Assembly (NCBI GenBank): GCA_944363795.1
Contig: CALVVG010000003.1
Location: forward strand, 1 to 44,990
Reading direction: 5' to 3'
DNA length: 44,990 nt
From: an uncultured Bacilli bacterium
GTDB taxonomy: Bacteria > Bacillota_I > Bacilli_A > RF39 > UBA660
Of this stretch, positions 3,496-44,990 are shown in pieces (position 1 is the stretch's first letter; each line of letters begins with the position of its first letter). The notes beneath the pieces are model-generated. The model was not told the DNA's origin. It saw only the letters and a list, made by a program, of their open reading frames with translations, and ran no database searches. Both the position numbers and the translations under genes were made by a program.

Positions 3496-5006
3496 CATCT
3501 ATATTCGTATTCTCCAGTATAATCCCAGCCACTTAAATTTTTATTGGTGCTCCATTTATATGTAGCTGTCTTATGATACCAAATTGTTTCTGTATCTTTA
3601 TTAGTTTTGTAATAACCTTTATAATCATTTCTGTTATCATATGTATCTCTAGTACAATCATTTTCATCAACATAGCTAACAGTAAATTTAAGAGGTACAA
3701 AGTATATATAGCTATTAATATTACTTGCATAATAACGATTAACCCCATTATTATTTCGATAATTAATAGTAACTAATGTTTTATATGAATTACCCTCTTT
3801 ATATAAATTACTAATAGCGTAATTAAAGTTATTTTCTGTTAAAGATGAACTTCTAAAAGTTGAAGCATTAGATATTTTAATATTATGGGTGCTAACATTT
3901 CCGGTCATATATAAGTCATTAGTTTGATTAATATATTTTTGATAATCAGTTGTTGAACTAGAAAAATAAGAACGATCTGTTATTTGTATTTCATTGTCTA
4001 CTATATCTCTGGCATCTATGTTTTGTAATGTTAGTTCATAATTATAGTTTTGTGAATTTCTTGAAGCACTTACCCAGCTAGTTGTGTAATAGGTTTTATC
4101 AGTGTATTTACAATAATCATAAGTGGTAACAGTTTCTTTTTTATTTTCGGTATTGCTTTTTGTTGAATATCCTTCTTCCCAATCTGACCATTTAACTAAT
4201 TTATAATATTTTGTTTTTTCTTCTGTTGGCTTTTCATCTGGAGTATTATCATCTGGATTTGCTGGTGTCGAAGGTTTATCTGGCTCTGTTGGTTTACTAG
4301 GTTCAGTAGGTTTACTAGGTGAACATCCTAATGCAGAACAAGTAATTTTAATACTAACTGTAGTTTTTACGGTAGTTGTTACTTTACTACTAGTACTTGC
4401 GCTGGAGCTAGAACCACTTGTTGTAGTTGTATTATTATTACTGCTACCATTATTTGCATTGTTATTGCTAGAGTTATTATTACTACTATTATTAGTGTTT
4501 TCTGTTGTATCATCATTTATTACAACGTCAGTATTTGGTTTTTCATTGCAGTTATTTTCTATAGTACAAGATTGTTCTTCAATTGTTGTTATAATAAAAT
4601 CTGATTTATCTCCACAATCTAAGCTAATTTTTAGCGCATAATTATTATCCGCAGTTTTAGTAGCTTGAATATAACTTGAATCAATATCACATATGTCTCC
4701 ATCATTGGTAAAATCAATTAGTAATTTTTGGTTTAGCATTTCTGATAAGGTTAATCTTTCAGTTTCTCCAATGTTTTCAGGCAATTTCGAAGAAGTAAAA
4801 TATTCAAAGGCTGCATCTTTCATTGCGGTTATATTATTAATATACTCAGTATCACCTACAGCTAGTGTAGATTTATTAGCAGATTTATTACCATTTATTT
4901 TAGTAATTATAAAACAAATTATAAAAACAATTACAGCCAATATAGCTAACTTAATAGCCAAAGATCCCCAATTAAAATTTAATTTTCTGTTTCCATCTTC
5001 GTACAT
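3495..5006 (-). CDS. membrane-anchored surface protein with pilin-like N-terminal domain and low-complexity N/S/T/P linker
   Basis: 503 aa; N-terminal TM; MKDAAFEYF...LTLSEMLNQKLL ComG-pilin-like segment; Asn/Ser/Thr-rich tract and PSKPTE tandem repeat; Tyr/Trp-rich C-terminus; AAAGGGGG RBS. Confidence 0.65.
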   Translation of the reverse strand: MYEDGNRKLNFNWGSLAIKLAILAVIVFIICFIITKINGNKSANKSTLAVGDTEYINNITAMKDAAFEYFTSSKLPENIGETERLTLSEMLNQKLLIDFTNDGDICDIDSSYIQATKTADNNYALKISLDCGDKSDFIITTIEEQSCTIENNCNEKPNTDVVINDDTTENTNNSSNNNSSNNNANNGSSNNNTTTTSGSSSSASTSSKVTTTVKTTVSIKITCSALGCSPSKPTEPSKPTEPDKPSTPANPDDNTPDEKPTEEKTKYYKLVKWSDWEEGYSTKSNTENKKETVTTYDYCKYTDKTYYTTSWVSASRNSQNYNYELTLQNIDARDIVDNEIQITDRSYFSSSTTDYQKYINQTNDLYMTGNVSTHNIKISNASTFRSSSLTENNFNYAISNLYKEGNSYKTLVTINYRNNNGVNRYYASNINSYIYFVPLKFTVSYVDENDCTRDTYDNRNDYKGYYKTNKDTETIWYHKTATYKWSTNKNLSGWDYTGEYEYR

Positions 5007-5232: not shown

Positions 5233-8040
5233 ATGGCTAATGTAGATAAAATTGTAATTAAAGGAGCAAGAGAAAATAATTTAAAAAATATTGATATAGA
5301 AATCCCCAAAAATAAATTAGTAGTTATGACTGGTGTATCTGGAAGCGGAAAAAGTAGTTTAGCTTTTGATACAATATATGCTGAAGGTCAACGAAGATAT
5401 GTTGAAAGTTTATCAGCTTATGCTAGACAGTTTATTGGTGTAAATGAAAAACCAGACGTAGATTCGATTGATGGCTTAAGTCCTTCAATATCTATAGATC
5501 AAAAGTCAACAAATAAAAATCCACGTTCTACTGTGGGGACCATAACGGAAATATATGATTATTTACGATTATTATTTGCTCGTATAGGAGTACCTTATTG
5601 TCCAAATCATAAAATTCCAATAACAAGTCAAAGCATTGAGGAAATGACTAATAAAGTTATGGAATACATTGGTAAAACAGTGACAATTTTATCTCCAATA
5701 GTTCATGGGGAAAAAGGAACACATAAAGATTTATTTGATGAACTTAGAAAAGAAGGTTATTCTAAAGTACGAGTAAATGATAAAATTGTCAGTTTAAATG
5801 AAGAAATAAATTTAGAAAAAAATAAAAAAGATAATATTGATATTGTAATTGACAAAATTCTTGTAGAGGATTTAGAAAGAGGACGAATCTTTGAAGCTAT
5901 TGAAGCATCCACTAAAAAAGCTGATGGAAAAGTTGTTGTTTTGGTTGATAATGAAGAAATATTAATGAGCGAAAAATATGCATGTGTTAAATGTAATTTT
6001 TCAATGCCAGAATTAGAACCACGAATATTTTCTTTTAATGCTCCATATGGAGCTTGTCCAGAATGTAAAGGTTTAGGAACTAAACTTAAAATTAGTGAAG
6101 ACTTGCTTATTCCTAATTGGGATAAATCTATTTTAGATGGTGGAATAACAGCAATTAGTATGGATTCAACAACTTATTTTACACAAATTGAAACTGTATG
6201 TAAATATTATGATATTGATATGACTATTCCATTAAAAGATATTCCTAGAGAAAAACTTGATTATATTTTGTATGGCACAAAAGAAATAATGGAATTTAAC
6301 TATGTATCTAAAAATGGCAATACCAGAAATACTAAAAATACATATGAAGGTGTAATACCAGCTTTAGAAAGAAGATACATTGAAACAAAAAGTGGTTGGA
6401 TAAGAGACTGGCTTTCTGGTTTTATGGTTGAAACTGAATGCCCAATTTGTAAAGGAAAAAGATTACAAAAATCAGTACTTTCAGTATATATAAATGGAAA
6501 AAATATATATGATATGACCGATATGTCTATTGGAGATTTACTAGAATTTGTTAAAAAGTTAAAATTATCTAAAGAAGAACAAGATATAAGTGGTTTAATT
6601 TTAAAAGAAATTATATCAAGATTAGAATTTTTAAATAATGTAGGTTTATCATATTTAACTTTGACTCGTAGTGCTGGTACTTTATCTGGTGGTGAAGCTC
6701 AAAGAATTAGACTAGCTACTCAAATAGGTTCACATTTGTCTGGTGTATTATATGTGTTAGATGAACCAAGTATAGGGCTTCATCAAAAAGATAATGAAAA
6801 ATTAATTAATTCTTTAAAAGAAATGCGAGATTTAGGAAATTCATTAATAGTAGTAGAACATGATACTGATACTATGTTAGCTGCTGATTATTTGATTGAT
6901 ATAGGTCCAGGAGCTGGTGAATTTGGAGGACAAGTCATGGCTGCAGGTACACCACAAGAAGTTATGAAAAATCCTAATAGTTTAACTGGTAAATATTTAA
7001 GTGGTGTAGAAAAAATTGAAATACCTAAGGAAAGAAGAAAAGGTAATGGTTTAAAGATTAGTATTAAAGGTGCTAAAGAAAATAATTTAAAAAATATTTC
7101 TGTTGATATACCTTTAAATAAATTTGTATGTATAACTGGAGTTTCAGGTTCTGGAAAATCATCTTTAATAAATGAAGTCTTATATAAAACGTTAGCTAAC
7201 CATTTATATCGTACTAAAGTAGTACCTGGAAAATGTAAAGAAATAATTGGTTTAGAAAATATAGATAAAGTTGTTCAAATTACTCAAGATGCAATTGGTA
7301 GAACTCCGAGAAGTAATCCAGCAACTTATGTTGGTGTATTTGATGACATAAGAGATTTATATGCTTCAACTAAAGAAGCTAAGTTGCGAGGTTATGATAA
7401 AAGTAGATTTTCTTTTAATGTCAAAGGAGGAAGATGTGAAAATTGTTGGGGCGATGGTGTAAAAAAAATAGAAATGCATTTTTTGGCAGATGTTTATGTT
7501 CCTTGTGACGTTTGTAAAGGAAAAAGATATAATAAAGAAACATTAGAAATTAAATATAAAGGTAAAAATATTAGCGAAGTCTTGGATATGCGAGTTAGTG
7601 AAGCAATAGAATTTTTTCAAAACGTTCCCAAAATATATAATAAGCTTAAAGTTATGATGGATGTGGGTCTTTCATATATTAAATTAGGACAATCTGCACC
7701 AACATTATCTGGCGGTGAAGCTGGTCGAGTTAAATTAGCTAAAGAGTTACAAAAAAAAGCTACAGGAAAATCATTATTTATTCTAGATGAACCAACTACT
7801 GGATTACACTCAGATGATATAAAAAAATTATTGAAAATATTAAATAGAATTGTCGATAATGGTGATACAGTTATTGTTATAGAACATAATTTGGATGTAA
7901 TAAAAGTTGCTGATTATATTATTGATTTAGGACCGGATGGGGGAAAAGGTGGAGGTAAAGTTGTAGCTACCGGAACCCCAGAAGAAGTCGCAAAGTGTAG
8001 TAAATCATATACTGGTGAATTTTTGAAAAAAATGTTATAA
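5233..8040 (+). CDS. uvrA: excinuclease ABC subunit A
   Basis: Two ABC domains (GVSGSGKSS twice, LSGGE twice), Zn fingers, [10 protein letters not shown]; start placed at ATG 5233 after AAGGAGG RBS (ORF track begins 5197). Confidence 0.98.
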
Positions 8041-39688: not shown

Positions 39689-40177
39689 ATGAATTCCAAT
39701 TTTTATAATAATTATAATTCTTTTGATAATTATAAAGTTTTTAATTATCGAAGTGATAAAAAAATATTTAATAGTGAAGAACTAATTACATTAAATCAAG
39801 CAATTGATTTAATAAAAAAATCTATTACAGATGAAAAAGAAGATGAATTATTTTATGATTTATTAATTACTCAAGCACCATCAGAAAAAGAAAAAAATAT
39901 TATTAAAAGTATTAGAGATGATGAAAGAAAGCATAATATTATTTTAAGGGAATTGTTTTATGAAATTACTGGCCAAACATTATCACAAGATATAATGAAT
40001 GCAGAATTTAATTACAATAAAAATTATAAAGAAAATTTAGAAAAAGCTTTATTTGGGGAGATAGATGCAGTAGCAAAATATCGAAAAATAATGAGTGCAA
40101 TGCCAAATGGTGATAGTTATAATTTATTAATGGCTATATTGACTGATGAATTACGTCATGCTGATAAATATAAATAA
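39689..40177 (+). CDS. ferritin-like/rubrerythrin-fold protein (sporulation-type), possibly C-terminally clipped
   Basis: DE...DERKH...GE...DELRH di-iron ligand pattern; AGGAGGAGG RBS. Confidence 0.8.
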   Translation: MNSNFYNNYNSFDNYKVFNYRSDKKIFNSEELITLNQAIDLIKKSITDEKEDELFYDLLITQAPSEKEKNIIKSIRDDERKHNIILRELFYEITGQTLSQDIMNAEFNYNKNYKENLEKALFGEIDAVAKYRKIMSAMPNGDSYNLLMAILTDELRHADKYK

Positions 40178-41129
40178 AAAAATAGAGCTTGATAACGAGA
40201 TAATAGAAATAATTTATATGGGAATATCTCAAAATGATAATATCAATTTTAAAAAAATAGAAAAATTAATAGATGGTTTTATAGATAAAATAAAAACTAA
40301 TGATATGATAAATAATATAGCAATTTTAAGAACAATTTTAAGAGAATATCAAGAAAAAACACTAGTTATTTTTTATCAAAATGATACTACATCTGAATTA
40401 GTAAAATATGATAACTTAAACTTATTACTATATGAAAGAAATCAAAAAAATAAATATTTTGATAAATATAAAATTAAATATGCACCAATATATGGTATTA
40501 AATTAAATTATAATAATCAGGATAAGGATATTAGTGATTATTTACGAATAGAACTTGTATCTAAGGAAATATCTGAATTGATTAAAAAAATTTTTTATTT
40601 ACAAAATATTCATACATTGGATTTAACATATAATGATAAATTATTAATAGAAGTTTATAAATTGTTTTATGAAGAAAATCCAGATTTTGCGAGTCATGAT
40701 ATAAATATAAAAATACAAACAATGATATCTATTTTAGGCGAATTCGGAATTACTTTGCCAGAAAATTATTCTTTTAATTTATTTAAAAACAATCTAATGC
40801 CATTATCAATTAATTTGGAACAACAAGTTAATAAATTATATCCATTCGGAGAAATAGTAAATGCAGAATATGAAAAATATTTAGATGCTGAATCGAAAAG
40901 GATAATACAAATTGTAGGCAAATATATTAGAAATAATGTTTATTATGAAAAAAATCCATTAAAACTATTGATAAATTTAAGTAAAGTAATATATGCAGAA
41001 AAATATTGTTTTTCAAATTTTGATTTTAATACAATATCAAGATTTACAAATGTTTCAATAAATGAAATAGAGTCAAATTTGAAATTAGTAAAAAATATAG
41101 AAAGGCAGATTCTTTATTCAAGCAATTAA
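40146..41129 (+). CDS. hypothetical protein (start uncertain)
   Basis: 327-aa open frame overlapping previous gene by 32 nt; no clear RBS or motif. Confidence 0.5.
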   Translation: MNYVMLININKKIELDNEIIEIIYMGISQNDNINFKKIEKLIDGFIDKIKTNDMINNIAILRTILREYQEKTLVIFYQNDTTSELVKYDNLNLLLYERNQKNKYFDKYKIKYAPIYGIKLNYNNQDKDISDYLRIELVSKEISELIKKIFYLQNIHTLDLTYNDKLLIEVYKLFYEENPDFASHDINIKIQTMISILGEFGITLPENYSFNLFKNNLMPLSINLEQQVNKLYPFGEIVNAEYEKYLDAESKRIIQIVGKYIRNNVYYEKNPLKLLINLSKVIYAEKYCFSNFDFNTISRFTNVSINEIESNLKLVKNIERQILYSSN

Positions 41130-41145
41130 ACATAAGGAGATTTAA

Positions 41146-41915
41146 ATGAAAGTATTGTTATTTACACATAAAAGCGATATTGATGGTATGGGAAGTGTTA
41201 TTTTAGCAAAATTAGCTTTTAAAGAAGTTAATTATATATAATGTGAAATGTCTAATTTGAAAAGTCAGATTTTAAAAGCTTATGAAAATGGTAGTATTTA
41301 TAATTATGATTTAATATTTGTTACAGATTTATTTTTAGATGATTCTATTTTAAATAAGATAACTAATAATTTACAATTATTTAATAAATTTTTTATTTTT
41401 GATCATCATGAATCAGCACAAAATTAGGATACTTCCAAATATCCTTTTATTACTTTAAAAATTGCAAATAAAAAAGGATTATGTTGTGGGACTAGCCTTT
41501 TTTATGAGTATTTAATTATTAAAAAGTATTTAGATAGTAAAAATGGAGCTATTAAACAATTTGTTGAACTAACCAGAAAATAAGAATAAAACAAAGTAAA
41601 AGATAAAAATTTAAATTATGCACAAAACATATATTATTGTAATTTTATGAATTTGGAAGTTGGTGTTGTATTTATCGATTATGAATATCGCAATGATTTA
41701 ACACAATTTTTAAGGGAAAATCATTATAATATGGATTTTATTATGTTAATAGCTATAGATAATGGAACAATTTCTTTAGTATTAAAAAAAATATTAATGT
41801 AAGATTAGTGGCTGAAGCAATGGGTGGTGGAGGACATGACGAGGCTGCTAGTAGTATTATAATTAAGCAACATATAAAAAAGATAATTGATATTATTATA
41901 AAAAAGTTTAATTAA
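41146..41915 (+). pseudogene. decayed DHH/DHHA1 phosphoesterase (NrnB-like oligoribonuclease)
   Basis: AAGGAG RBS; THKSDIDG, VTD, FDHH and GGGGH motifs; in-frame stops at 41239, 41425 and 41581 plus a later frameshift. Confidence 0.88.
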
Positions 41916-42096
41916 TTTATCGTTTGTTGAAACTTGGTAATATCTAAAATATTAAATAGTGTTGTACTTATATTTATACTTATGTTAATTGCAATAGTTG
42001 CTATATGAAAAAAATAAGCGGTAGTTAAAATGGTTTATTACTAATTTCGTTTACTTAGTATTAAAGTATAGTAAGATTAATAGGATGTGTAATTAG

Positions 42097-42240
42097 TTAT
42101 TCGGTTGGCTCTATACTCTGTAAAATAGTATGTAGAAGAACTTTAAGTTTTCTTTTTTTAGTTTTATAAGTGTAATTTTTAATAAGTTCTATTATTTTTG
42201 AATTGGGTTTAAATTCTTCTATAACTTTAAATTCAAGCAT
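42097..42240 (-). CDS. small basic 47-aa protein not in the ORF track
   Basis: AGAAAGGAGGT RBS directly upstream of ATG 42240; MLEFKVIEEFKPNSKIIELIKNYTYKTKKRKLKVLLHTILQSIEPTE. Confidence 0.5.
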   Translation of the reverse strand: MLEFKVIEEFKPNSKIIELIKNYTYKTKKRKLKVLLHTILQSIEPTE

Positions 42241-42290
42241 AAAAATGACCTCCTTTCTAGGAAGATAACATTAAAGTTTAATATTTATAT

Positions 42291-42328
42291 AAAATAAAAA
42301 CTTACAAACTTTTTATAGTTCGTAAGTT
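42291..42328 (-). terminator. intrinsic terminator on - strand beside left att-like site
   Basis: On - strand: AACTTACGAACT-6 nt-AGTTTGTAAGTT followed by U-rich tract. Confidence 0.6.
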
Positions 42329-42336
42329 GTATTCAA

Positions 42337-42349
42337 ATGGAGCGATAAC
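42337..42349. repeat. att-like direct repeat, left copy
   Basis: ATGGAGCGATAAC; 12/13 identical to 44771-44783; flanked by TTCG (42319) and CGAA (42362). Confidence 0.6.
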
Positions 42350-42511
42350 TTTACTTGTATTCGAAATTTTATACTCTCAAGATTGATTAAATCAACTAAA
42401 TAAATTATATCAGTTTTTAAGATTATTTCAAGTGGATTATAGAAAAAAGAACTTAAATATTGTATAATATTGATTAATAATTTATCTTTACAAGAAGCAG
42501 GAGGTAAAAAA

Positions 42512-43378
42512 ATGGTTTATTTAAAAAAATTTACTTTATTAGATGAACTTCAAGAACACGATATAGTTTGTTATGAAGAAATAAGAAGAATATTTAATAA
42601 TTATTATCCTTTACATTTATTTTCAACTAAATCTTTTAAAAATATAGATTTTGATAAAATTACAATTTTTTATGGTGGTAATGGTTCAGGAAAAACAACA
42701 TTAATAAATATTATTTCAGAAAAATTAAATGCTTCAAGAAAGTCATCAATTGATAAAGGTTCATATTTTGATTTATATGTTAAGCATTGTGATTATGAAA
42801 TGTCGTTTGATGAACCAACTGAAATAAAATTAATAACAAGTGATGACGTTTTTGATTATCTTTTAGATGTACGTTCAATCAATGCTAATGTTAATAGACA
42901 AAAAGAAAAATTAAGTAAAGAGTACTTAGATTATAAATTTAATAAAGATGGAAATTCATTTGACAATTATGATGAGTTAAAAACAAGTTATGAAGCAAAA
43001 AGAAAATCAATGTCTAAGTTTGTTAGAGAACGATTAGGAAATAATAATATTATAGAATGGTCAAACGGTGAATCAGCTCTTATGTTTTGGGAAAGGGAAA
43101 TAGAAGAAGATAGCATTTATATTTTAGATGAACCAGAAAACAGTTTATCTGCAGAAAACCAATTAAAATTAAAGAAATTTATAGAAGATTCCGTTAGATT
43201 TTATAATTGTCAATTTATAATTTCTACACATTCGCCATTTTTATTAAAACTTATGGATGCTAAAATTTATGATTTAGATCAAATTCCTGTGACTACTAAA
43301 GATTGGACAGAATTATCTAACGTTTTAGTATATTATAATTTTTTTAAAGAATACGAAGATGAATTTAATAAAAAATAG
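42512..43378 (+). CDS. stand-alone ABC/AAA_21-type ATPase (COG3910-like)
   Basis: GGNGSGKT Walker A, SNGE signature, ILDEPENSL Walker B/D-loop, STHS H-loop; ATG 42512 after AGGAGGT; TATAAT at 42463. Confidence 0.9.
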   Translation: MVYLKKFTLLDELQEHDIVCYEEIRRIFNNYYPLHLFSTKSFKNIDFDKITIFYGGNGSGKTTLINIISEKLNASRKSSIDKGSYFDLYVKHCDYEMSFDEPTEIKLITSDDVFDYLLDVRSINANVNRQKEKLSKEYLDYKFNKDGNSFDNYDELKTSYEAKRKSMSKFVRERLGNNNIIEWSNGESALMFWEREIEEDSIYILDEPENSLSAENQLKLKKFIEDSVRFYNCQFIISTHSPFLLKLMDAKIYDLDQIPVTTKDWTELSNVLVYYNFFKEYEDEFNKK

Positions 43379-43399
43379 GATAGTGTAATATAATAATTT

Positions 43400-43567
43400 T
43401 GCAGTAGTGATTGGAATTATTTCCTACTTTAACGAGTCGTTAAGGGACTAAATTAATTATGACGATTAAATAGTAATACTCCAAAGGACTAACCTACACG
43501 TTGTGTAGCCGCTTCGTTGCACTTCGCTTTAAGTCCATTTCCATATTACAATATCGTTAGTACTGCA
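43400..43567 (+). ncRNA. retron msr-msd ncRNA
   Basis: Terminal inverted repeat TGCAGTA (43400-43406)/TACTGCA (43561-43567); unpaired G43407 opposite G43560; msr hairpins GGAA-TTAT-TTCC (43413-43424) and TTAACG-AGT-CGTTAA (43429-43443); long msd stem 43460-43559; directly upstream of a retron RT. Confidence 0.85.
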
Positions 43568-43586
43568 TATACGGGAGGTAGTAAAA

Positions 43587-44546
43587 ATGTGGAAATACAT
43601 AGGTACAAAAGAATGTAATGAGTTTTTACTATCTCTCAATTTAATTAATTGTAAAGATGATAAAAAATACATAAAAACTATTTATTCCATTAGTAATAAT
43701 ATAGAAAAAAATTATAAAATATATAAAATAAAAAAACGTAATGGTAAATATAGAACTATATATGAACCAAATTTAATTTTAAAACAAATTCAAAAACAAA
43801 TCTTAAATAATATACTTAATAATAAGTCTATATCAAAATATGCAAAAGCATATCATAAAGGAATTCAATTGAAAGACAATGCGATTCCCCATATTAATAA
43901 AGAAATGATTTTAAAGTTGGATATTAAAGATTTCTTTGAAAATATATCATTTTTAGATATTTATAATTATTGCTTTCCTATAGAATATTTTCCTAAATCA
44001 GTTGGAATGATATTAACTTATTTATGTACATATGATAATCACTTAACTCAAGGGTCACCGACTTCTGCCTATATATCAAATTTAGTAATGAAAGAGTTTG
44101 ATGAAGAATTAGGAAATTGGTGTAATTTAAGGAATATATCTTATACAAGATATTCAGACGATATGACTTTTTCTGGTGCATTTAATCCTAGTGAATTAAT
44201 AACTAAAGTTAGAAAAATGTTATATAAATTAGGATTAGAATTAAATAATGATAAAATTCATATAGTATATAAGTCTTCTAGTCAAAATGTTACAGGAATT
44301 GTAGTTAATGAAAAAATGCAGGTTAATGTAAAATATCGTAATAAGATAAGACAAGAAATATATTATATTAAAAAGTTTGGATTAAGTTCTCATTTAAAAA
44401 AATGTGACATTAATATTGATTCAAAAAGATGTTTAAATATATTATATGGAAGAGTTCTCTATGTTTTACAGATTAATGAAAATGATAAAGAATTTATAAA
44501 ATATAGGCAATTTATTGAAAATTTAAAAAGACAATGTAAGTCATAA
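43587..44546 (+). CDS. retron-type reverse transcriptase
   Basis: NAIPH (NAxxH, region X), LKLDIKDFF, TQGSPTS, YTRYSDD catalytic motif, VTG (region Y); 319 aa with no fused domain; GGGAGGT RBS. Confidence 0.93.
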   Translation: MWKYIGTKECNEFLLSLNLINCKDDKKYIKTIYSISNNIEKNYKIYKIKKRNGKYRTIYEPNLILKQIQKQILNNILNNKSISKYAKAYHKGIQLKDNAIPHINKEMILKLDIKDFFENISFLDIYNYCFPIEYFPKSVGMILTYLCTYDNHLTQGSPTSAYISNLVMKEFDEELGNWCNLRNISYTRYSDDMTFSGAFNPSELITKVRKMLYKLGLELNNDKIHIVYKSSSQNVTGIVVNEKMQVNVKYRNKIRQEIYYIKKFGLSSHLKKCDINIDSKRCLNILYGRVLYVLQINENDKEFIKYRQFIENLKRQCKS

Positions 44547-44557
44547 TGACCTAGAAT

Positions 44558-44763
<206 letters not shown>

Positions 44764-44770
44764 TTACCTT

Positions 44771-44783
44771 ATGGAGCAATAAC
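44771..44783. repeat. att-like direct repeat, right copy
   Basis: ATGGAGCAATAAC; flanked by GTGCG (44753) and TGAAAC (44794). Confidence 0.6.
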
Positions 44784-44990
44784 AAAGGTTATTTGAAACT
44801 TCTAGAGAAAGTTGACAAACAACTAATTTCTAATAATATTTTAACACAAATTTTGTTATTTTAGACAAAAAAGTTTAAAAATATGTTATAATATGTTTTA
44901 CAAAGGGAGGTTTTAAGGTTGAAAATAAATAATTAAAATTAAGGCATACAAAAGGATTTCAAAAAATCAAAATTTTTTTGAAATGAAATT

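Follow-up and report, generated by a model that had tools for sequence, protein, structure and literature searches.

A retron and an ABC-type ATPase gene on one strand

Near the end of the 44,990-nt stretch analysed here (contig CALVVG010000003.1 of an uncultured Bacilli bacterium; "the window" below), positions 42512-44546 hold the gene for a stand-alone ABC-type ATPase and, directly behind it, a retron, with an msr-msd non-coding RNA (ncRNA) and a reverse transcriptase (RT) gene. An earlier note on this DNA had considered the ATPase and the retron a candidate new retron system, with an orphan retron next to an unrelated ATPase as its second alternative. The comparative data favour the second: the retron's own promoter is conserved, and most RT homologues have no ATPase beside them. 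The locus is read here as an orphan Ec107-like retron beside an independent ATPase, with a probability of roughly 65%, and it is probably not a new type of retron defence system.

All three elements lie on the + strand. The ATPase open reading frame (ORF; 42512-43378, 288 residues) and the RT ORF (43587-44546, 319 residues) are separated by a 208-nt spacer, inside which the ncRNA (43401-43566) is located. Both ORFs of the earlier note were confirmed. Its gap of 21 nt between the ATPase stop and the ncRNA was right in being short and slightly off in its figure, as 22 nt (43379-43400) precede the a1 strand that covariation supports. The terminator scan called no terminator in this gap, as had been stated; its sole + strand call (43503-43522) is a hairpin within the msd. 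The ORF list, Pfam and PADLOC also bear out the absence of TOPRIM and HNH domains, and there is no additional ORF between the two genes.

A promoter-like site upstream of the ATPase (TAGAAA, a 17-nt spacer and TATAAT; 42440-42468), found by consensus scan only, has 10 of 12 matches. This site is conserved in the closest relatives only; in the other loci that carry the pair, homology to the window begins at 42464-42512. A ribosome-binding site read from the sequence, GGAGG (42500-42504), stands 7 nt before the ATG at 42512. That of the RT gene, GGGAGG (43573-43578), was likewise read from the sequence, and its GGAGG is nearly invariant in the alignment of related loci described below. After the RT stop, a terminator-like hairpin followed by TTT is recognizable by eye at 44572-44606, with a 12-bp stem including one G-U pair and an 8-nt loop; the terminator scan missed it, the T run being too short. 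Within 42512-44546 there is no further + strand ORF of at least 40 residues, and no gene follows the RT up to the contig end at 44990.

The RT belongs to the Ec107-like lineage

The best profile for the RT is PADLOC RT_Ec107-like (PDLC03739), which scores 416.5 bits over profile positions 2-306 of 307 (305/307). The next, RT_III-A, scores 346.8 bits, 70 bits lower, and the top PADLOC matches are all retron RT profiles. The protein also matches Pfam RVT_1 (80.9 bits), and it contains the NAxxH and VTG motifs specific to retron RTs and a YxDD catalytic site: NAIPH at residue 98 (43878-43892), YSDD at residue 189 (44151-44162) and VTG at residue 235 (44289-44297). The PADLOC check that the earlier note had proposed has thus been run on the RT and returns a full-length match. 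On these profiles and motifs, the locus is a genuine retron of the clade-2 Ec107-like "orphan" lineage, the assignment being one of profile score.

Passages of the 2020 classification (PMC7736814) describe the clade-2 RT branch with Retron-Eco5 (Ec107) as stand-alone, without an associated protein cluster, and its function and trans effector as unknown. Passages of a 2026 SPIRE survey (PMC13712802) list 192 "clade2_Ec107like" RTs, 93% from Bacillota and 92% host-associated, and present the lineage as lacking any recurrent accessory gene. An ATPase neighbour of Ec107-like retrons is not mentioned in those passages of the two papers, and the supplementary per-RT neighbourhood tables might list one. 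The retrons analysed here resemble this clade-2 branch in their full-length RT profile and in being mostly from host-associated Bacillota (compare the same passages of PMC7736814 and PMC13712802). They differ in that the hosts are gut Bacilli with genomes of ~1 Mb and in that, in one sub-lineage, the gene for an ABC ATPase lies immediately 5' of the retron.

The second-best profile is a point of likeness to the type III-A retrons (RT with PRTase-like and DNA-binding proteins), which share a node with the Ec107 branch in the part of the classification cited (PMC7736814). Unlike in type III-A, no PRTase-like or winged-helix gene adjoins the RT in the window or in 74 related loci, a search that covered these neighbourhoods and not the whole genome.

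The genome from which the window comes (0.87 Mb, 82% complete) contains two Ec107-like retrons. The second (G000 contig C2:33855-34793, - strand; locus L083:1498-2439) encodes an RT 52% identical to that of the window. A TGnTATAAT box of its own and a covarying a1/a2 helix (GAGCAATAT with ATATTGCTC) are present; ordinary-looking genes flank this retron, and no ATPase adjoins it.

The retron has its own promoter and a conserved ncRNA

An alignment of the 215 nt 5' of the RT start across 62 related loci defines the upstream edge of the retron cassette. Conservation starts abruptly at an extended -10 box, TGnTATAAT (window 43386-43394), whose columns are invariant or nearly so, and the sequence further upstream is unrelated between loci. 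The TATAAT at 43389-43394, raised by the earlier note as a possible promoter of the retron itself, is found there and forms part of this conserved 5' edge. The window reads TAATATAAT at 43386-43394: the TG of the extended element is lost, with TA instead. The TG at 43386-43387 is kept in at least 90% of the 62 relatives, and TA is present in the window and in L002. The box is followed by 7-9 variable bases and then by GCAGTAGTG.

The RNAalifold consensus of the 62 sequences places the ncRNA between a1 (GCAGTA, 43401-43406) and its partner a2 (TACTGC, 43561-43566). Two msr hairpins follow a1 (43413-43424 and 43427-43445). The msd stem pairs 43473-43478 with 43544-43549 and 43486-43489 with 43533-43536, and encloses an inner CTACAC/GTGTAG hairpin. 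The G at 43407, conserved and directly after a1, is the candidate branching G. Covariation strongly supports the fold: 99.1% of cells are paired, against 32-50% when the partners are slid; compensatory change occurs in 16 of 32 pairs, against 3-7 when slid; and none of 500 shuffles equals the observed values. The a1/a2 helix shows compensatory change in four of its six pairs.

A single-sequence fold had offered a different a1/a2 helix, 43379-43391 with 43545-43557 (z = -1.0), the 5' arm of which is the promoter -10 region. This candidate was rejected because covariation favours 43401-43406 with 43561-43566 and because the upstream sequences are unrelated in other loci. Rfam searched at gathering thresholds gave no match in the window.

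Contigs from RNA libraries of three studies lie over the ncRNA (X16, 43380-43596; X17, 43442-43641; X18, 43414-43577), X17 and X18 being free of mismatches, and other such contigs cover parts of both genes. None of them bridges the ATPase-retron junction, several parts are without cover, and such contigs cannot show transcript ends. They are a weak hint that the ncRNA is made, library DNA being another possible source.

Two relatives depart from the common cassette in other ways. In L039, an insertion of ~100 nt separates the ncRNA from the RT start and the RT ORF is broken. L025 contains a duplicate copy of the 3' part of the ncRNA and the 5' end of the RT.

The ATPase is a separate single-gene family

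The 288-residue protein matches Pfam AAA_15 (50 bits), AAA_21 (41 bits) and ABC_tran (31 bits), with no other domain. Its motifs are Walker A GGNGSGKT (42674-42697), signature SNGES (43061-43075), Walker B YILDEPE (43118-43138) and H-loop STHSP (43223-43237), and none of the catalytic motifs varies among 28 relatives, whether these are paired with an RT or solo. An AlphaFold2 model built with these 28 relatives (pLDDT 80.2) represents a generic ABC head with a helical insertion. In Foldseek searches, this model is similarly close to ABC-F proteins, nucleotide-binding domains of transporters, GajA, OLD, PtuA, the ATPases of retron I-A and Eco7, and SMC heads, with TM scores of 0.3-0.45. No specific family could be assigned: Foldseek against the PDB, a PDB sequence search and the ESM Atlas returned generic ABC ATPases only. 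No nuclease or other effector domain was found with Pfam, and the matches to PADLOC defence profiles are weak and partial (mad3 55.8, PtuA 54 and AriA 49.5 bits).

In type I-A retrons (Ec78/Ec83), the RT is accompanied by a Septu-like PtuA ATPase and a PtuB HNH nuclease. Here too, an ABC-type ATPase adjoins the retron, and the ABC hits from Foldseek include Retron-Eco7, Ec83 and retron I-A ATPase chains (TM 0.37-0.41). In contrast to type I-A, the gene order is another one, an HNH gene is missing and the RT is of another clade. The ATPase has 288 residues, as opposed to ~450-550 in the PtuA chains listed; it reaches 32.2 bits with the NCBIfam PtuA model, for which the cut-off is 500, and at most 54 bits with PADLOC PtuA, across C-terminal motifs only. 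With type I-B retrons, OLD and GajA (ATPase-TOPRIM proteins), the likeness is an ABC head with an AAA_15/AAA_21 signature. Unlike these, the protein has no TOPRIM and ends ~50 residues past the H-loop. PADLOC ATPase-Toprim_I-B matches it with 41.7 bits at profile positions 186-260 of 443 only, and Pfam gives no TOPRIM hit.

The family is large: in a sample of 401 genomes of the order, it occurs in 49 genomes from 26 genera, often as broken copies. No conserved neighbour of solo ATPase genes was found. The genes just 3' of them are mutually unrelated and encode a HerA-like DUF87 protein, DUF2207, DUF4186, GNAT, Tag glycosylase and Gate proteins. By its domains and its changing neighbours, the ATPase is an independent single-gene family.

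RT and ATPase are mostly found apart

A scan of one genome per species gave 80 loci, 74 of them with an RT 40-99% identical to that of the window, nearly all from uncultured gut Bacilli. In four of the 74, the upstream DNA is too short to judge. Among the 70 judgeable loci, the ATPase is directly 5' of the RT in seven (L001, L002, L003, L030, L035, L072 and L074), and RTs as close as 79-88% identity (L004-L017) are without it. The earlier note had suggested such a count, to the disadvantage of its first proposal if close RT homologues lacked the ATPase, and with the ATPase at only 7 of the 70 loci, they do. When neighbours within ~3 kb were clustered across the 74 loci, no cluster besides the RT itself was present in more than nine, and the largest, with nine loci, is made up of short antisense ORFs inside the RT gene. 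No accessory gene is thus conserved across these Ec107-like relatives. Among seven upstream neighbours at RT-only loci, the only Pfam match was to a LexA-like repressor. These loci do not support the candidate new retron system as a general architecture: the ATPase is present at 7 of 70, and no other effector is conserved.

The distribution of the ATPase is also patchy. At 29 ATPase loci in other genomes of the order, an RT follows in five and is absent in 23, and one is too short to judge. In the 401-genome sample (cut-offs: ATPase, E <= 1e-30; RT, E <= 1e-40; most genomes 89-99% complete), the RT occurs in 55 genomes and both genes occur in 10, against 6.7 expected if they were independent. 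The two are adjacent in six of these 10 genomes and on different contigs in four. Of the RT genomes, 45/55 have no ATPase hit, and 39/49 ATPase genomes have no RT hit. Even close relatives follow this pattern: ATPases 86-95% identical to that of the window occur in G164, G003, G251 and G351, none of which is RT-positive, and RTs 80-85% identical occur in G120, G175 and G022, none of which is ATPase-positive.

The edges of the two modules are consistent with these counts. In blastn comparisons of 40000-44990 with all loci, ATPase-only loci delimit an ATPase module from ~42500 to 43375-43393, and RT-only loci delimit a retron module from ~43384-43389 to 44505-44547. The two modules meet in the short stretch, 10 nt long, that separates the ATPase stop from the -10 box.

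The pair is inherited and has moved as a unit

Trees of the RT and of the ATPase, both made by a quick method (quick IQ-TREE for the RT), divide the paired RTs into three groups: A (the window, L001, L002 and L003), B (L030, L035 and L074) and C (L072). The same groups recur in both trees. The ATPase does not accompany the RT throughout an RT clade; paired and unpaired RTs are interleaved, with L033 sister to L072 (support 98) and L005 sister to L003 (80). Parsimony on the RT tree requires four changes in pairing, at least two of which are forced by the starred branches. On the side of the ATPase, the pairing may be ancestral to one sub-clade in which the two modules were joined once, and the quick tree leaves room for such a single origin.

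A number of observations weigh against a merely accidental neighbourhood and count against the reading preferred here. All eight paired ATPases fall into one 14-member clade (SH-aLRT 92), together with six unpaired ones, and outside this clade none of 18 is paired. The junction sequence between ATPase and retron is the same in all pairs. The genes on either side of the pair are not, and at least four groups differ in this respect. A 121-nt direct repeat (94% identical, z = 66; 4774-4894 and 6975-7094) exactly encloses the pair of L035 and corresponds to the promoter and initial codons of the next gene downstream. The repeat around the pair of L072 is 52 nt long (z = 22.6; 4682-4733 and 7212-7265) and corresponds to the 3' end of a small gene with a SEC-C-like motif at its terminus. 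Pairs bracketed in this manner were therefore inserted or duplicated as one unit, and since the repeats differ between L035 and L072, there is no common att site. Flanking direct repeats with z >= 6 were found in one of 54 valid RT-only tests and in none of 23 ATPase-only tests; rows L043, L045 and L047, indexing artefacts of short flanks, were left out. Among metagenome contigs whose ATPase is at least 87% identical to that of the window, an intact retron follows in 20 and a decayed one in 13, and neither in 0 of 33. The missing terminator between ATPase and retron also belongs here, and with the TG of its extended -10 box lost, the retron of the window may lean more on read-through from the ATPase promoter. 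Finally, type I-A retrons make use of ABC ATPases of this broad kind. They took over an ATPase system that occurs by itself as well (PMC12819146). As Septu too is found without retrons, the fact that each partner is often alone would not by itself rule out coupling in the paired sub-lineage. Judged by junctions, trees and repeats, the pairing is not random: it is lineage-specific, is inherited and has moved as a unit.

These observations could be accounted for if the stand-alone ABC ATPase had become a retron partner, as sensor or effector, in this sub-lineage. The result would be an ATPase-only module, analogous to the co-option of the Septu ATPase by type I-A, that spreads as one defence unit. 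The co-directional genes with no terminator called between them, a junction that stays constant down to 76% RT and 87% ATPase identity, the single clade of paired ATPases, the retron, intact or decayed, behind 33/33 judgeable metagenome ATPases of at least 87% identity, the four or more flanking contexts and the unit-level repeats in L035 and L072 all fit this proposal. So does the patchiness of the ATPase (49/401 genomes, with frequent broken copies), as is seen for accessory and defence genes. However, 63 of the 70 judgeable close RT loci have no ATPase, among them the nested L005 and L033. The ATPase has neither a nuclease or other effector domain nor a partner gene, and the PtuA models remain far below cut-off (32 versus 500 bits). 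Near-identical ATPases stay intact where the retron has been deleted from the same genomic context, and in one pair the ATPase is interrupted by a nonsense codon next to an intact RT. A functional partnership of this kind is therefore considered unlikely.

Decay and recombination of the pair

The fate of the pair in close relatives bears directly on whether one gene depends on the other. Of 61 metagenome contigs with close ATPase relatives, 46 are judgeable; they were not dereplicated, so that the counts are not of independent events. An RT is adjacent in 22 of the 46, including the degraded L170 and the chimeric-ATPase locus L158, and not in 24. The hits in L170 had at first the appearance of a divergent pair (ATPase 66%, RT 57-65% identity). 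This candidate was rejected: the hits are fragmentary and the junction DNA is exactly that of group B, as in a degraded or error-rich copy.

In 13 contigs (L118-L129 and L153; for example L125:3365-3660), the ATPase is intact and ~93% identical, the RT is deleted, and a 55-130-nt stub of the ncRNA is left. Of these stubs, 10 of 13 have TATAAC in place of TATAAT, all have AAGTAG in place of the a1 sequence GCAGTA, and the msr hairpins carry mutations. Six of the 13 contigs were compared with the window, and all six share the ATPase and the flank just upstream (42330-42402, and from 42446). In L121, L125, L126 and L153, which retain a stub of ~130 nt, homology extends to 43507 and resumes at ~44669-44778, in the flank 3' of the RT. 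These four have lost the 3' half of the msd and the whole RT and retain an intact ATPase ORF. For L118 and L129, homology extends only to 43431, with no match found further downstream. In L087, an intact ATPase is followed by 16 nt from the edge of the retron and then by unrelated sequence.

The converse is also seen. In L074 (G298), a TAA stop lies inside the ATPase beside an intact RT. Loss of one gene is thus not followed by loss of the other, in the 13 stub contigs and L087 on one side and L074 on the other. Among 54 RT-only retrons searched for remnants of the ATPase 3' end on their 5' side, only L009, L019 and L014 reached p <= 0.01, a modest level of support. L011 and L012 resemble L009 and L014 by eye, in that what looks like the last 20-45 nt of the ATPase gene (last codons and stop) lies upstream of the retron -10. 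These sequences in L009, L011, L012 and L014 are suggestive of a paired ancestor from which the ATPase was deleted.

It is improbable that the ATPase is a toxin which the retron restrains: an allele of 93% identity persists where the retron is deleted from the same context, and an allele of 95% identity (G164) occurs in a genome in which no RT was found.

Two further loci suggest recombination inside or beside the ATPase gene, with exchange of the retron. The chimeric ATPase of L158 (1226-2356) is divergent over its first ~235 residues (~62% identity overall) and of the paired type over its last ~50, next to a paired-type retron. In L114, the ATPase is 99.3% identical to that of the window and the RT only 89.8%. 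On this basis, the ATPase gene could be a homology anchor or landing site at which retron cassettes are exchanged by recombination, so that pairs recur without a shared function. L158, L114 and the presence of paired RTs in at least three groups of the RT tree are what such exchange would produce. Yet only these two chimeric or swapped cases were seen, and groups A, B and C are the same in the RT and ATPase trees, such that co-divergence from one joining explains most pairs. As a general account of the pairs, recurrent exchange is very unlikely.

A model of the locus

Taken together, the evidence is most consistent with two separate elements that became neighbours. The retron would be a self-contained cassette of three parts, its own -10 promoter, the msr-msd ncRNA and the RT, from a lineage that normally has no effector in cis. 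The cassette would be transcribed from its own promoter, and in the window, read-through transcription of the ATPase gene would probably contribute as well. The a1/a2 helix would present the G just after a1 to the RT, which would then copy the msd into multicopy single-stranded DNA (msDNA).

The ATPase would be a separate, patchily distributed, single-gene ABC-type ATPase without a conserved partner. A single joining event, in the ancestor of one ATPase sub-clade, probably made them neighbours, and they would since have been inherited, moved and recombined together. That they stay together is largely attributed to the distance of only ~10 nt between the ATPase stop and the retron promoter. That they are probably not mutually dependent is concluded from descendants that lose either one and keep the other intact. 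The retron itself belongs to a known lineage, and its ATPase neighbour is lineage-specific.

Clade-2 Ec107-like retrons are abundant and have no cis effector, and their function was an open question in the 2020 classification (passages of PMC7736814). If the ATPase and the retron were coupled after all, the ATPase would be the first cis partner for these orphan retrons and a lead to their function. If the coupling is not real, the window holds one more orphan retron. In either case, the locus adds a precise anatomy of the cassette, with a TGnTATAAT promoter, a covariation-supported fold and exact edges. Such Ec107-like cassettes occur in more than 50 different contexts and in ~14% of the sampled order of ~1-Mb gut Bacilli. 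The relatives also form a natural series in which the pair is intact, the retron lost or the ATPase lost, and the stub contigs amount to a natural "retron knock-out" series.

Flanks of the locus

The earlier note had described the ATPase and RT as the only intact genes between two att-like repeats. The repeats do not hold up: the best flanking direct repeat is 20 nt long with 18 matches (42296-42315 and 44588-44607) and reaches z = 2.1 relative to shuffled flanks. In L001, a relative with 98% identity, an indel interrupts its downstream copy, and the other paired loci are homologous to the window only from ~42464-42512 to 44505-44547. Decayed genes are indeed present between the repeats. The sequence at 41141-41854 is a decayed DHH/DHHA1-family gene, with 72-76% DNA identity to a gene that is intact in L037 (313 residues) and partly intact in L001; in the window, it contains short ORFs only.

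Two other flanking segments recur in relatives. L008 has two copies of 42279-42488, and L017, L024 and L034 have one each, at a distance of 2-5 kb from the respective retron. Copies of 44600-44778 occur reversed in L063 and L065, and also downstream of the decayed retron in L121, L125, L126 and L153. Both segments may be dispersed repeat elements, or the second may be a conserved flank. Further upstream, a 327-residue ORF without a Pfam family (40146-41129) overlaps the end of a rubrerythrin/ferritin-like ORF (39689-40177) by 32 nt.

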